From: Eledone cirrhosa
Lineage: Eukaryota
Reading direction: 5' to 3'
Assembly: GCA_964016885.1 (NCBI GenBank)
Contig: OZ024741.1
Location: 312,356,001 to 312,420,000 of the forward strand
DNA: 64,000 nt
The translations under genes and the position numbers were made by a program. Below, one piece after another: positions 4,763-61,037 of this stretch. The notes under the pieces are model-generated. The model worked only from the letters and a program-made list of their open reading frames with translations, was not told the DNA's origin and did not search any database. Within the stretch, counting starts at the first letter, position 1; every line of letters starts with the position of its first letter.

Positions 4763-5152
4763 AGGAGGTGAGTTTTATTGTAGCACAATAAAGCAATGCA
4801 AATATCGGTTAAGTAGCACTCTACAGTTTGTAGGACTGGAGTATAAATAATATAAGATCAAAAGATGGTTAAAAGAGTTCCAAGTATTTTATTATGCGCA
4901 TTTCAAAAACAAATATCATCATGGGATGATATCTGCGTTCTCATCAGATAAAATAGGGAGACATGATATGAAGCTTCAAAAACACTTGTGAATAGTGAAG
5001 TTTTTAATCAACATATGTTGATCTAAAACTTCACTATTCACAAGTGTTTTTGAAGCTTCATATCATGTCTCCCTATTTTATCTGATGAGAACGCAGATAT
5101 CATCCCATGATGATATTTGGAACTCTTTTAACCATCTTTTGATGTTATATTA
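4763..5152. mobile_element. foldback element A in (TA)n, putatively PLE-derived
   Basis: Palindrome centred at 5014/5015 with arms 4848-5014 and 5015-5152; ~85-bp tail on the left only; contains a hammerhead. Confidence 0.75.
4885..4955 (-). ncRNA. type I hammerhead ribozyme with minimal palindromic stem III
   Basis: tattttat-CTGATGA-stem II (atatcatc/gatgatat)-GAAA-tgcgca-TA-ataaaata; 8-bp stem I. Confidence 0.85.
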
Positions 5153-5166
5153 TATATATATATATA

Positions 5167-5640
5167 AGTATAGAACCAGTTTGAAACTAGTTAGACCATT
5201 ACTCTACACAGTACTCGATACTTGACATAGTAGAGTATGAGAATCCAGCCAGATCTACCTATAAACATACATGATTTGAAGAATACTTCGAGTGAGACGC
5301 TTAATCTCAAGTCTGGTTTCCTAAAATCTATAACCAACTCACCATTTAGACTGAGTGCTCGGTTATTTTGGGATATAACCTCCCGTTTTTTACCACCACA
5401 TATGTATATATATGTATATAATGGGAGGTTATATCCCAAAGTAGCAGAGCACTCAGTCTAAATGGTGAGTTGGTTATAGATTTTTGGAAATTAAACTTGA
5501 GATTAAGCCTCTCACCCGAAGCATTATTCAAACCATGTATGTTTATAGGTAGCTCTGGCTGGATTCTCATAATCTACTGTGCCAAGTATCGAGTACTCTG
5601 TAGAGTCATGGTCTAACTAGTTTCAAACTGGTTCTACACT
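5167..5640. repeat. foldback element B, ~220-bp inverted arms around a short TA tract
   Basis: Arms ~5167-5387 and ~5421-5640 are diverged reverse complements; (TA)n on both flanks. Confidence 0.85.
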
Positions 5641-5867
5641 GATATATATATATATATATATATATATATATATCTTTAGGTTTGTTGGTTCACCACTGGA
5701 TAGAACTGGTCATTCCGTATGGTCAATCCTGGTGTAATTTTGTGAAGAGTATTCAACGCAGTGCAGTTCACCCATCTTCGTTTGTGTAGTTGGTGGTGCG
5801 AATACGGAGTTAATTATAAATGAAATAACAGGAGGCTGGACTGGTGTAAATCCTTGAAAGGTTTATT

Positions 5868-5925
5868 ATACTATGATCATTTCAATGACCGGGTTCCATA
5901 TGAATCCGCTGATATCATCAGGTAT
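5868..5925 (-). ncRNA. type I hammerhead ribozyme
   Basis: atac-CTGATGA-imperfect stem II-GAAA-tgatca-TA-gtat. Confidence 0.7.
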
Positions 5926-7078
5926 TGAAATATAACAAAGGAATATGTAAAAAGCCATGGGCCCGAAAAATCAAAGACAGAGAGGACTGCTGACCAACTA
6001 GCTTCTCTGCCAGCCGCCCTCAAATGTTGGCAGCTGAAAACTACCAATGAATATCTGGTGAGGGGGCGAAGGCTTATAATGCGCTACCACCACTCTATAT
6101 TGATTCTTATTTACCTTTATTAATTTTTTTACTATCTCATTAATGTATATATTTTTTTTTAAATTATTTTATTAATGTATTTTTATCAATGTATTCTATC
6201 TTTATATTGGTTTTTATCTTTGTATGCTGCTTTCATTATTTTTTCATTTTTTCTTATTTTATCGTATTTTTTTGTAACTTTTCCTTACTCAGGTCATTAT
6301 GCACCTTTCATAGCCCCCTACCCACCTAAGAACCACATTACCTATAACCCGGACTAACTGGGACTTTAAAATAATTTTGGTCTATTTGCACTTTTCATTG
6401 GGTTGTTACCTTCGACTTGTGTGGTGGCTTTTCCCTGCTGCGCGCTGGGCACTCGGAAAATTCAGCCTTCCTTGAGTGCTCGGAAAAATTAATTTCCATT
6501 TCTTTTGCTGGACGATACCACTCGAGACTGGCTGACTCATGGTGGTGGGTGTGCTGGCGGGGCCTTCCTATCGAATTCTTTACTCTATATCCCATACTAA
6601 TATCTTATCGAGTTAAACATTTTTTTCATATAAGACTCTCTCCGTAAGTTCATTAAATAAATAAATCTCGCTACTTCAATTCACCATTTTGCAATTAAAT
6701 ATTTTTAATTTAATTTAATTTCATCCTATAACTCGCAACATAAGTTTAACGTTCCAATCTTCGGTTCACACATTAGACCATACAGACACTCATTATAGAT
6801 TCTTTGGGTAGCATTTTTTTCGCAGCATTTTCTAACATGAATGTAGTTTGACTCTTACACTACACTTCATTCTCCCTTTCTTTCTTTCTTCCCCTCCTTC
6901 TTTTACGGGGTGGTGGTAGCGCATTATAAGCCTTCGCCCCCTCACCAGATATTCATTGGTAGTTTTCAGTTGCCAACACTTTGAGGGCGGTTGGCTGAAA
7001 GGCTAGTTGGTCAGCCGTCCTCTTTGTCTCTGATTTTTCGGACCCATGGCTTTTTACATATTCCTTTGTTATATTCTA

Positions 7079-7136
7079 ATACCTGATAATATCACCCGAT
7101 TCATATGGAATCCGGTCATTGAAATGATCATAGTAT
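7079..7136 (+). ncRNA. hammerhead copy with mutated core (CTGATAA)
   Basis: atac-CTGATAA-...-GAAA-tgatca-TA-gtat; G8A relative to the left-arm copy. Confidence 0.55.
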
Positions 7137-7660
7137 AATAAACCTTTCAAGGATTTAAACCAGTCCAGCCTCCTGTTATTTCATTTATATATATATATAT
7201 ATATATATATATATATATATATATATATATATATATATATATATATATATATATATATATATATATATTTATTTATTTATATATCTATATAAATTATATA
7301 TATATATATATATGTATATATATATATTTATATATATATATATATATATATATATATATATATATATATATATATATATATATATATAAATTATATATAT
7401 ATATATTATGGATGTTGAGACTCTAGTCTTCATTAAGAAATCTCTCTAGAAGAAGGTCACTCTTATATAATAAACCTTGCAAGTTCCTTTGTATCCAATG
7501 ATGTAGACCAGTTCTTCTTTTGCGGAAATGCATTCGAGTTTCAGGGAGTGGGATTGGATGCGTGCAAAGCCTTTCCTCACTTCAAATAGCTGCATGCACA
7601 GACATTGCTCAATAAGTGATATTTTTGCGATGCATGTTGTTGCTGGTCATAGGCAAGTAC

Positions 7661-7721
7661 TCAGTATATTACTGGTACTTTATTTTATCGACCCCGTAAG
7701 GATGAAAGGCAAAGTTGACCT
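7661..7721 (-). mobile_element. SINE fragment
   Basis: ctggtactttattttatcgaccccgtaaggatgaaaggcaaagttgacctc matches the family body. Confidence 0.75.
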
Positions 7722-8051
7722 CTCATCCTTACGGGGATATATTGTATATATATTAATAAAATATCGGTGGCCATTTTCAGTTGATTCAGATTTATTTAAC
7801 TCCGTTATACATATTTCGCTAAGGATTATCTTTTATTAACATATAATGATCCGGCTTGCACCACTTATACAGATTGTTGAACGCTTTTTTTTCTCTGGTT
7901 AACAACCGACAGTCCATAATGTTCGGTTAACACCATACTCTAATTATATATATATATATATATATATACGTTATTCCGAGTTGAATCGGAGGTAACCACA
8001 GTAAGTAAGGTACTCAATACATAGCAGAGTATAATAGTTTTAATATAGAAG

Positions 8052-8102
8052 AGATTCTACAGGACTAGAACTGTTTCATTCATTAGAAATCATCAGGAAT
8101 CT
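8052..8102 (-). ncRNA. type I hammerhead ribozyme (family D)
   Basis: agattc-CTGATGA-tttctaatgaat-GAAA-cag ttctagtc ctg-TA-gaatct. Confidence 0.85.
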
Positions 8103-59380: not shown

Positions 59381-59388
59381 TACATATA

Positions 59389-59865
59389 CGTTATTCCGGG
59401 TTGAATCGGAGGTAACCACAGTAAGTAAGGTACACAATACATAGCAGAGTATAAAAGTTTTAATATAGATGAGATTCTACAGGACTAGAACATTTCATTC
59501 TTTAGAAATCATCAGGAATCTGGGTATCAAAAAATAAGTATGGTATTTATAGGTCTCTTCAAGTGGTAGGAGAGGGTAGGGAGTGGGATGGGTGTCGGTC
59601 ATTGGTTGATAGAAAAGGGAATTCATTAAAAGCTAATTCTTCAAAGCTATAGTTTATTTTTAGAGTAACAAAGGCAGAAAGAATTCTATAAACAGGTTCA
59701 GGATGGGGTGCCACTCCTTATTTTTAAGTTTCTCTTAAGCTAACAGGTGTCTATAAAATCAGTGGGGGTCAGTCATGGTTGATAGATTTAAACCCAGATT
59801 CCTGATGATTTCTAAAGAATGAAACAGTTCTAGTCCTGTAGAATCTCATCTATATTAAAACTATA
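59389..59865. mobile_element. second family D foldback insertion
   Basis: Same terminus cgttattccg as 7969; ~400-bp left part and ~70-bp inverted arm 59793-59864 ending at the same base as 14164. Confidence 0.85.
59796..59846 (+). ncRNA. type I hammerhead ribozyme (family D); the minus-strand partner at 59472-59521 has a damaged stem III
   Basis: agattc-CTGATGA-tttctaaagaat-GAAA-cag..ctg-TA-gaatct. Confidence 0.85.
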
Positions 59866-60008
59866 TTATATATATATATATATATAGAGAGAGAGAGAGA
59901 GAGAGGCTGGAGCACTCGACGAAGTGCGCAGGTTGGTTTGGTTACTCCGGAGTAGTGTAAAATATAGTTAAATAAAAGTCAAATGATTAAAATTTAGCTT
60001 CGTTTATT

Positions 60009-60063
60009 ACTGCTATATATATTTCAGTGACAGCCATCTTTGGCTGTGACCTCTTCAGGCAGT
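60009..60063 (-). ncRNA. type I hammerhead ribozyme
   Basis: actgc-CTGAAGA-stem II (acagcc/ggctgt)-GAAA-tatata-TA-gcagt. Confidence 0.85.
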
Positions 60064-60349
60064 TTGAATTAGTATGGTATAGACAAGTACATATGATGTT
60101 GAGGTGTATAATATTGTCAATACTCTGATATGCTCAGTTCCTTGTTGGGTTGTTATTTCACTGAGGAACTGGAGTCATATATATGACTCCAGTCATATAT
60201 GACTCCAGTCATATATATGACTCCAGTCATATATATGACTCCAGTTCCTCAGTGAAATAACAACCCAACAAGGAACTGGGCATATCAGAGTATTGACAAT
60301 ATTATACACCTCAACAACATATGTACTTGTCTATACCATACTAATTCAA

Positions 60350-60404
60350 ACTGCCTGAAGAGGTCACAGCCAAAGATGGCTGTCACTGAAATATATATAG
60401 CAGT
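60350..60404 (+). ncRNA. type I hammerhead ribozyme
   Basis: Identical to 60009-60063; predicted cleavage after 60399. Confidence 0.85.
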
Positions 60405-60512
60405 AATAAACGAAGCTAAATTTTAATTATTTGACTTTTATTTAACTTTATTTTATATGTATATATATATATATATATATATATATATATATATATATTA
60501 TATATATATATA

Positions 60513-60824
60513 CTAGAATCGGAATTAAGACCATTCCGCAGTTCACAGTAATAATACTAATATTAGCTCAAAGAAGAATAGAGAATTTTTTACACAAATA
60601 GAAGTGTATTACACAGTGAAATGTGTGTAAAGAATTATTACAAGTGATTTTTACTTATAAGGTTAGTAATTTAAAATCTACTTCAGAGATTTGATTCTGA
60701 CTTAGGTTTTTTTCTATTTAATTGCTAAACCTCTAGATATTGTTTTCTATACAGTAACGGTAGAAATCACTTGTAATAATTCTTTAAACACATTTCACTG
60801 TGTAACACACTTCTACTTGTGTAA
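60513..60824. mobile_element. foldback element I in (TA)n
   Basis: Arms ~60589-60653 and ~60760-60824; ~75-bp left-only tail; no clear ribozyme. Confidence 0.65.
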
Positions 60825-60970
60825 TATATATATATATATATATAAGGTTCAATGAATAAATCAAAGAATGAGTATTACAATAGATTGGAAGCACTCAATA
60901 GTCATGGTTTTCTGGAGTTATTAATATTAATTCAAAATATCAACAAAATAGATATCTTTGTGATCAAGTA

Positions 60971-61037
60971 TATTTTATTATACATATTTCAGAGGTACTG
61001 AGCTAACTTCAACAGTACGTCCACATCAGATAAAATA
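60971..61037 (-). ncRNA. hammerhead with A9U core change, near the TA-abutting end of another element
   Basis: tattttat-CTGATGT-stem II (gtactg/cagtac)-GAAA-tatgta-TA-ataaaata. Confidence 0.65.

Follow-up and report, generated by a model that had tools for sequence, protein, structure and literature searches.

The ten inverted-repeat elements found in a 64 kb, TA-repeat-rich stretch of the 3.0 Gb genome of Eledone cirrhosa (contig OZ024741.1, positions 312,356,001 to 312,420,000; hereafter the window) are very probably, for the most part, short back-to-back insertions of Hydra-type Penelope-like elements (PLEs) accompanied by three non-coding tandem units, each insertion likely made by copying one RNA from both cut ends of a TA target. 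An earlier note on this sequence had described ten inverted repeats lying in or beside (TA)n, with 40–140 extra terminal bases on one arm and with unrelated bodies. Pairwise alignment and self-BLAST agree on the placement and the inverted form, and the one-sided tails measure 38–143 nt. The bodies are not all unrelated: the copies starting at 7969 and 59389 are one family (88% identity), as are those at 14882 and 48898, leaving eight families, which we letter by start as A (4763), C (5673), D (7969 and 59389), F (14882 and 48898), G (25077), I (49121), E (59905) and H (60513). Family tails are 82 nt in A, 143 in C, 61 in D, 97 in E, 38 in F, 77 in G, 90 in H and 88 in I; the window copy of E has lost 44 nt and retains a tail of 53 nt. 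Together the ten elements occupy 10,627 bp, about 17% of the window, so that mis-annotation as miniature inverted-repeat transposable elements (MITEs) or simple repeats would be sizeable. The large genome-wide component that the earlier note had anticipated was indeed found, in that a family I 52-mer occurs in 7,175 exact copies and a family F (F1) 44-mer in 1,161, while control words gave 0.

Paired arms combine one tail end with one short end

Outer ends were surveyed in 419 loci (1.39 Mb). In 8/8 families, and in targeted and incidental copies alike, these ends fall into two peaks 38–143 nt apart, the two fixed outer ends of each family, which we term the tail end (T) and the short end (S; called within −3 to +8 nt, or to +20 nt for D and F). 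Pooled over the eight families, TA directly borders 496 of the 618 ends classed as T or S, the background being 4.9% for the window and 10.5% for the loci; ends outside TA include tandem junctions, open reading frame (ORF) read-through and GA runs. Among TA-flanked inverted pairs (n = 186), 180 combined one T with one S, none was T+T, none was S+S and 6 contained an unclassed end, where independent choice by each end would give T+S in about half. In paired arms the RNA 3′ side faces outward, and inner ends vary. The shared termini and TA flanks proposed earlier are thereby seen, with the asymmetry running one way, and the pattern that the earlier note had named as refuting (symmetric terminal inverted repeats, no TA bias, no ORF link) was looked for and not seen. 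An unselected F sample, drawn from the first 100 exact matches of a 44-mer common to both arms (86 loci), gave 47 loci with two TA-flanked inverted arms, which comprised 44 T+S, no T+T, no S+S and 3 other pairs. The foldback form described for the ten elements thus holds for all of them in the window and for only these 47 of 86 unselected F loci genome-wide.

The short end has recognizable surroundings. S lies inside an alternating A/T run of 2–4 nt in 8/8 families (26–38% of background positions lie in a run of at least 2), and the word RCTC starts −1 to +9 nt from S in 8/8 families and in J (a neighbouring single arm; Table 1), G′ and F2, compared to background frequencies of 6% per site in the window and 9–31% within the eight family references. 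GAGY lies downstream of RCTC in all but F2. The RCTC word was found in these same eight families, and the out-of-sample cases are only J, G′, F2 and incidental families, several of which show it.

Five families lead into Penelope-type reading frames

Judged by their frames and motifs, families A, D, E, G and I are the 3′ ends of Hydra-type PLEs. The spacer of the longer D copy encodes a GIY-YIG endonuclease C-terminus whose 150 best genomic matches are 98–100% identical, and an intact 758-codon frame with reverse transcriptase (RT) and GIY-YIG domains was found in 6/6 loci (L106–L111) chosen for that frame length. In these loci the frame stands behind a hammerhead-bearing repeat, with a second repeat ~5 kb further on; this pLTR-ORF-pLTR layout (pLTR, pseudo-long terminal repeat) also occurs in I (L314, L317) and was not seen for A, E or G in the loci examined. 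The D protein carries RIRWR, DKT, YRDD, CNCLNKETC, YIGMT, CDLCISE and CMH; A, E and I share DKT and the linker with D, the RWK position reads RWR, RWI or RWK, and CCHH is absent from the frames as judged by eye. D was at first read as Neptune-like, a reading discarded because Hydra motifs fit better. Families A, E, G and I each have a same-sense ORF 0.8–1.2 kb upstream of the hammerhead end, 35–52% identical to D and therefore from distinct families (A in L078, L090, L092 and the extended L259–L261; E in L012 and L017/L113; I in 10 of 30 unselected loci, L300–L329); the RT and endonuclease frames of A, E and I are broken or partial.

In the longer D copy (7969..14169) the left arm runs 3.5 kb from T and the right arm 2.7 kb from S, the two joining near 11470, and the outer ~570 nt of both arms are near-identical. 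Both arms include the D 3′ region of ~2.4 kb of mixed TA/CA/TG microsatellite (8560–10960 and 11470–13640), so that D itself spreads simple repeats.

Three non-coding families share the same two ends

The remaining families are non-coding. Family C repeats every 1,853 bp in the extended loci L256–L258, its longest Met-ORF has 78 codons, and a tblastn comparison with the D protein gave 0 matches inside the unit; family H has an ORF-less period of 544–547 bp (L190, L192, L195, L198). Each C and H tandem unit holds one type I hammerhead. Family F has a period of 271 bp, with a subfamily F2 that is ~80% identical and has a period of 290 bp. Of the two origins offered earlier, PLE derivatives or retrozyme-like elements, both are present, as five families with an RT/GIY-YIG link and three non-coding ones. 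Since C, H and F share the two-fixed-end layout of the ORF-bearing families, they likely borrow the same enzyme; that is, lacking an ORF, they likely use a Penelope enzyme in trans.

Each F unit contains an outward-facing tRNA-like cassette, with a T5 run starting 8 nt after it. ARAGORN calls the cassette Ser-GGA, without the long variable arm, with matches in 30/30 F loci (one scan list per locus), and A- and B-box words in the F head make up a predicted Pol III promoter. Hammerhead core words (CUGANGA/UUGANAA) number 0 in F1 and F2; allowing two core mismatches gave one weak F1 match (4+2 bp) that is not kept in F2, and Rfam gave no ribozyme in F at E ≤ 5, a weak negative in that Rfam also missed real hammerheads. 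F likely relies on the tRNA-like cassette, as Pol III promoter or RNase P site, where other families have the hammerhead. The layout of a short interspersed element (SINE), with a tRNA-5′ start, a simple or A-rich tail and long interspersed element (LINE)-type target duplications, does not describe F, which crosses unit junctions, has two fixed ends and forms inverted pairs. Because 20 of the 86 unselected F loci cross a unit junction, the F template would have been multimeric or circular.

The inner ends of F are unevenly distributed: 51 of 134 TA-flanked arms end at 151–160, the T-stem entry for RT, 4–9 nt short of A58, and, with 12 run-through calls at 178 left out of the count, 6 of the 22 arms ending beyond 165 stop ≤2 nt from the cassette 5′ end (binomial p = 1e-4, or 9e-4 counting loci). 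These positions suggest that the RNA was folded and that some of its 5′ ends lay at cassette +1. It is a real possibility, to which we give the smaller share of belief, that the pile-up at 151–160 instead reflects a palindrome with a TA-like word (ACGTACAT) that favours joining, rather than RT halting where the tRNA-like RNA is folded or modified. Such a word does sit at the main inner-end peak, junctions there overlap the TA flank or the other arm by AT or TGTA, and best-hit F2 loci have no matching peak, with only 3 of 39 inner ends at the corresponding place, 97–104 (30 loci, biased to whole units), all of which tells against the folded RNA. Conversely, other AT/TA words 10–16 nt earlier are little used, single arms stop at the peak too, and a small second peak lies on the tRNA 5′ end, all of which tells against the joining explanation.

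Three further ideas about F were set aside. Selection on the full cloverleaf could not be argued from covariation, since the D, anticodon and T stems hardly differ between F1 and F2, and F2 does not keep the outer acceptor pairs; folded on its own, the cassette is no more stable than shuffled sequences (z −0.57). Twelve inner ends at 178, considered as a peak, look like alignment run-through across the fold at ~157. A variable patch directly before the cassette, with minor-allele frequencies summing to 0.82 per 10 nt and considered as a joining site, is matched by two other bins.

Hammerheads face outward and are often incomplete

A first descriptor that required a closed 10.1–11.1 pair gave 0 motifs in the window; with that criterion relaxed, 7 strict type I hammerheads were found, compared to a mean of 0.12 and a maximum of 3 in 100 block-wise dinucleotide shuffles of the window. 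All 7 read outward, as the earlier note had said (one in A, one in C, three in D and two in E). That note had placed hammerheads in A, C, D, E and H, and the first four are intact, whereas the motif at 61037 has a mutated core and belongs not to H but to J, which is located beyond the TA run that closes H. The Rfam hammerhead models that it had recommended missed these motifs: cmscan of the window returned 140 matches with no hammerhead among them.

Motifs on the partner arms are broken, by a 29-nt deletion in A, by G8A in C and by a 1-nt deletion in the D copy at 59389. No whole hammerhead is present in the copies at 14882, 25077, 48898, 49121 and 60513; those of G, H and I end within or before their hammerhead. 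At the family level, G has a UUGANAA core (L208, L209) and H a canonical one (L265, L267). Family I has the core CAGAAGA (U4A) in 19/19 motif-bearing loci of the 30 unselected (49186–49245 in the window); the motif would be either a variant that is still active or a ribozyme that has died in an element that nonetheless thrives. Isolated minimum-energy folding recovered helices I and II only in A (z −2.7) and E (z −2.5), and not in C, D or J. Across 0.89 Mb of loci the descriptor gave 279 matches; many families beyond the eight occur in the flanks, among them UUGANAA variants and some with a long helix II. At 380–500 of the window, beside a CA/TA run, the minus strand carries a decayed hammerhead region resembling that of D (CUGAUGA at 419).

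Proposed copying of one RNA from two cut ends

We propose that the GIY-YIG domain would cut both strands of (TA)n and that each 3′ OH would prime reverse transcription at one of two fixed internal RNA sites, one strand at T and the other at S. A 2–4-nt UA match may aid priming at S, RCTC just 3′ of S, usually paired with the later GAGY, may position the enzyme, and two mostly abortive cDNAs would then be joined head to head via microhomology. Because copies continue past the hammerhead cut site into the sequence upstream of it, and also span unit junctions, the RNA that served as template had likely not been cleaved or was multimeric. An anole PLE has been reported to behave comparably in vitro, with the tail delimited by two internal sites at which RT starts, both strands cut and extended, and an uncleaved RNA template (PMC11167929). 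A more demanding version of this scheme could well hold, our judgement tilting slightly against it: twin priming would be obligatory, with one complex using two start sites on one RNA set by an RCTC…GAGY helix, and any signal-bearing RNA would ride along, including the ribozyme-free F as a SINE-like PLE parasite whose RNA ends would come from the tRNA-like cassette instead of a hammerhead and which spreads as tandem and inverted units.

Several observations weigh against copying of one RNA from both cut ends, or against its Penelope origin. Most family samples behind the 186 pairs were best-scoring matches to tail-bearing queries, a bias to young, tail-containing copies, and S+S pairs were under-sampled because most queries carried the tail. 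Among the 86 unselected F loci, 39 have one TA-flanked arm, and a third end appears at position 52 in 3 of 30 family I loci. F2 lacks the downstream GAGY, and in three incidental families the examples shown have no RCTC near the end. The anole enzyme starts without homology to the cut DNA and with no strand difference in start site (PMC11167929), behaviour that by itself does not predict strict T+S. On the protein side, the Pfam match to GIY-YIG is weak (E 0.092), the ORF link of G comes from a single locus (L263) and its C-terminal part only, and the Hydra-clade placement is drawn from motifs, not from a tree. None of C, H and F could be matched to a partner element, and the loci examined contained no autonomous partner of F.

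A mechanism with a single primer, in which cDNA from T snaps back, the hairpin is copied and S is made by a fixed endonuclease cut at resolution, would likewise yield one T and one S, and many junctions do lie at small palindromes with little or no spacer; it is close to the ‘EN-mediated resolution’ proposed for the tail by Craig et al. 2021 (PMC8557442). We consider it unlikely. Often it is the S arm that extends deeper into the element, or that contains sequence missing from the T arm, as in staggered F loci of the L255 type (in L344, T extends to 108 and S to 220) and in L381, L389 and L412, whose S arms cross unit junctions. Moreover, the S arm is the sole TA-flanked arm at 20 of 86 F loci, and both tail limits are RT start sites in vitro (PMC11167929).

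It is very improbable that C, H and F, being tandem and encoding no protein, propagate in the manner of satellite DNA or through local recombination and have a merely PLE-like look, for their copies are dispersed over many contigs as 1–3 units and have the fixed ends, TA flanks, T+S pairing and RCTC of the ORF-bearing families. That the elements are MITEs or some other DNA transposons that target TA and have terminal inverted repeats is hardly credible: they are inverted repeats in TA, and short G and I copies (160–230 bp) have similar lengths among the best matches, but 0 of 186 pairs are symmetric, inner ends vary, unselected I copies range from 136 bp to ORF-bearing lengths, and five families lead into RT/GIY-YIG frames, links that refute this reading for A, D, E, G and I.

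Relation to known systems

Inverted truncated copies, a one-sided tail, opposite-strand hammerheads and TA targeting are already published (PMC8557442, PMC4209133, PMC11167929). For Hydra elements, the accessible text of Craig et al. 2021 (PMC8557442) gives (TA)n as insertion site and reports canonical hammerheads, and the clade resembles the families described here in its RT with C-terminal GIY-YIG, RWK-like motif, DKT, CxCX5C and lack of CCHH, in CxxC and CxH around conserved E and N, and in the pLTR hammerhead, (TA)n target, inverted 5′-truncated copy and tail at one end. Differences are that D, with its long low-complexity 3′ region, is ~5 kb, whereas the clade is given as ‘generally <3 kb’, and that tails here are 61–143 nt (38 nt in F) compared to a published 30–40 bp; a strict pairing of one tail with one short end is not stated for the clade in that text. 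The Anolis Poseidon PLE (Frangieh et al. 2024, PMC11167929) is likewise described with two RT starts downstream of the hammerhead, use of both strands and an AT-rich target. Poseidon belongs to another clade, however, its starts lie inside the ORF rather than before the first Met as in D, and they lack homology to the cut DNA, whereas S overlaps a 2–4-nt A/T alternation.

As far as the consulted portions of PMC4209133 and PMC3088659 extend, published type I hammerheads agree with ours in a small palindromic helix III, in many families per genome, in opposite-strand pairs 100–700 bp apart and in the U3-A8 core variant of family G. The fixed U4A core of family I was not found in these portions of either source (U4C is mentioned in PMC3088659). 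Families C and H resemble non-LTR retrozymes (Cervera and de la Pena 2020, PMC7229834; Li et al. 2026, 10.64898/2026.07.22.740005) as non-coding tandem type I hammerhead units, and differ in unit length (1,853 and 547 bp compared to ~170–400 nt), while F has no hammerhead. PLE mobilisation of retrozymes was proposed in PMC7229834 and given phylogenetic support in 10.64898/2026.07.22.740005; the link made here comes from insertion ends, and the terms ‘tail’ and ‘insertion site’ are absent from the available text of the latter. With tRNA-derived SINEs, including the octopus OR2, a tRNA-derived CORE SINE (cited in PMC4758252), F shares a tRNA-like head, A and B boxes and a length of ~270–290 bp; going by the descriptions at hand, it is set apart by tandem and inverted units, two PLE-type ends, the T5 run and sequence upstream of the cassette. 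Active Penelope families are listed in an octopus repeat annotation of 2026, whose accessible sections mention neither hammerheads nor ribozymes (PMC13282606).

We found no published report of the strict T+S pairing, the RCTC signal, the U4A core or a tRNA-bearing tandem passenger, in a search that was thin on subscription journals and Repbase. How PLEs form inverted copies and tails is, according to the text seen of PMC8557442, an open question, which the one-tail-one-short rule and the start signal make testable with the young, intact D. Non-coding units with PLE ends provide insertion-site evidence for retrozyme mobilisation by PLEs, a proposal based until now on co-occurrence and phylogeny. 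Family F suggests a passenger that bears a tRNA and lacks a ribozyme, and it would inflate tRNA-Ser(GGA) calls in the genome.

Feature coordinates and other repeats in the window

Table 1 Foldback elements of the window, the features they contain and the neighbouring single arm J
Feature	Position	Strand	Description
Family A foldback	4763..5155		3′ end of Hydra-type PLE (by frames and motifs); 82-nt tail on left arm; hammerhead 4955-4885(-); right-arm hammerhead deleted
Family C foldback	5673..7188		Ends of 1,853-bp ORF-less tandem unit; 143-nt tail
Family C hammerheads	5925-5868; 7079-7136	-; +	Intact; G8A copy
Family D foldback 1	7969..14169		Young Hydra-type PLE insertion; hammerheads 8102-8052(-), 14096-14146(+)
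GIY-YIG endonuclease C-terminus of family D	11164..11472	-	102 codons; in D spacer
Family F foldback 1	14881..15477		271-bp tandem unit, 1.4 units left and 0.8 right; 38-nt tail; no hammerhead found
tRNA-like cassettes of F	15028..15099; 15297-15368	-; +	Outward; Rfam tRNA 37.6, 37.1 bits (gathering 29); ARAGORN Ser(GGA)
Family G foldback	25077..25237		77-nt tail; 3′ half of hammerhead only; family core U3-A8 variant (UUGANAA)
Family F foldback 2	48896..49108		Short; ends before tRNA-like cassette
Family I foldback	49118..49343		88-nt tail on right arm; 3′ end of Hydra-type PLE (by frames and motifs); hammerhead incomplete here
Family D foldback 2	59389..59862		Hammerhead 59796-59846(+)
Family E foldback	59905..60455		3′ end of Hydra-type PLE (by frames and motifs); hammerheads 60063-60009(-), 60350-60404(+)
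Family H foldback	60513..60824		Ends of ~547-bp ORF-less tandem hammerhead unit; this copy stops before hammerhead
Element J	60845..61060 (about)	-	Separate single arm; mutated hammerhead 61037-60971 (CUGAUGU)

Around families A and C lies a larger local palindrome (4482–5393 and 5414–7660) with a TA-rich centre, made of units K and B: K at 4482–4763 is 95% identical to 7660–7379, and B at 5146–5393 is 90% identical to 5662–5414. A and C were inserted later, into TA runs of this palindrome, and K adjoins B as a single copy at other loci within 1 Mb (L208, L211). The hairpin at 5146–5662 was ruled out as a family foldback; B is symmetric, because the 72-bp tail of a G-related family opens both of its arms.

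In the genome search with family G, 38 of the 40 best matches were on the plus strand, probably a tie-breaking artefact of the search, since incidental copies were found in both orientations. Elsewhere in the window, positions 16667–17393, between TA runs, hold a 613-bp unit that begins a second time for 114 bp, and an inverted pair flanks it (16589–16671 and 17422–17504); a hammerhead was not found in this unit with one core mismatch allowed. Between 26000 and 41600 lie several decayed tandem LINE copies with endonuclease and RT frames, which we take, from their motifs, to be L1/Tx1-like. Finally, a ~190-bp repeat that does not form foldbacks is dispersed in both orientations (2316–2504, 4092–4290, 21231–21417, 27113–27312, 33874–33982, 40398–40598, 43994–44186 and 62614–62769) and is probably an ordinary SINE.

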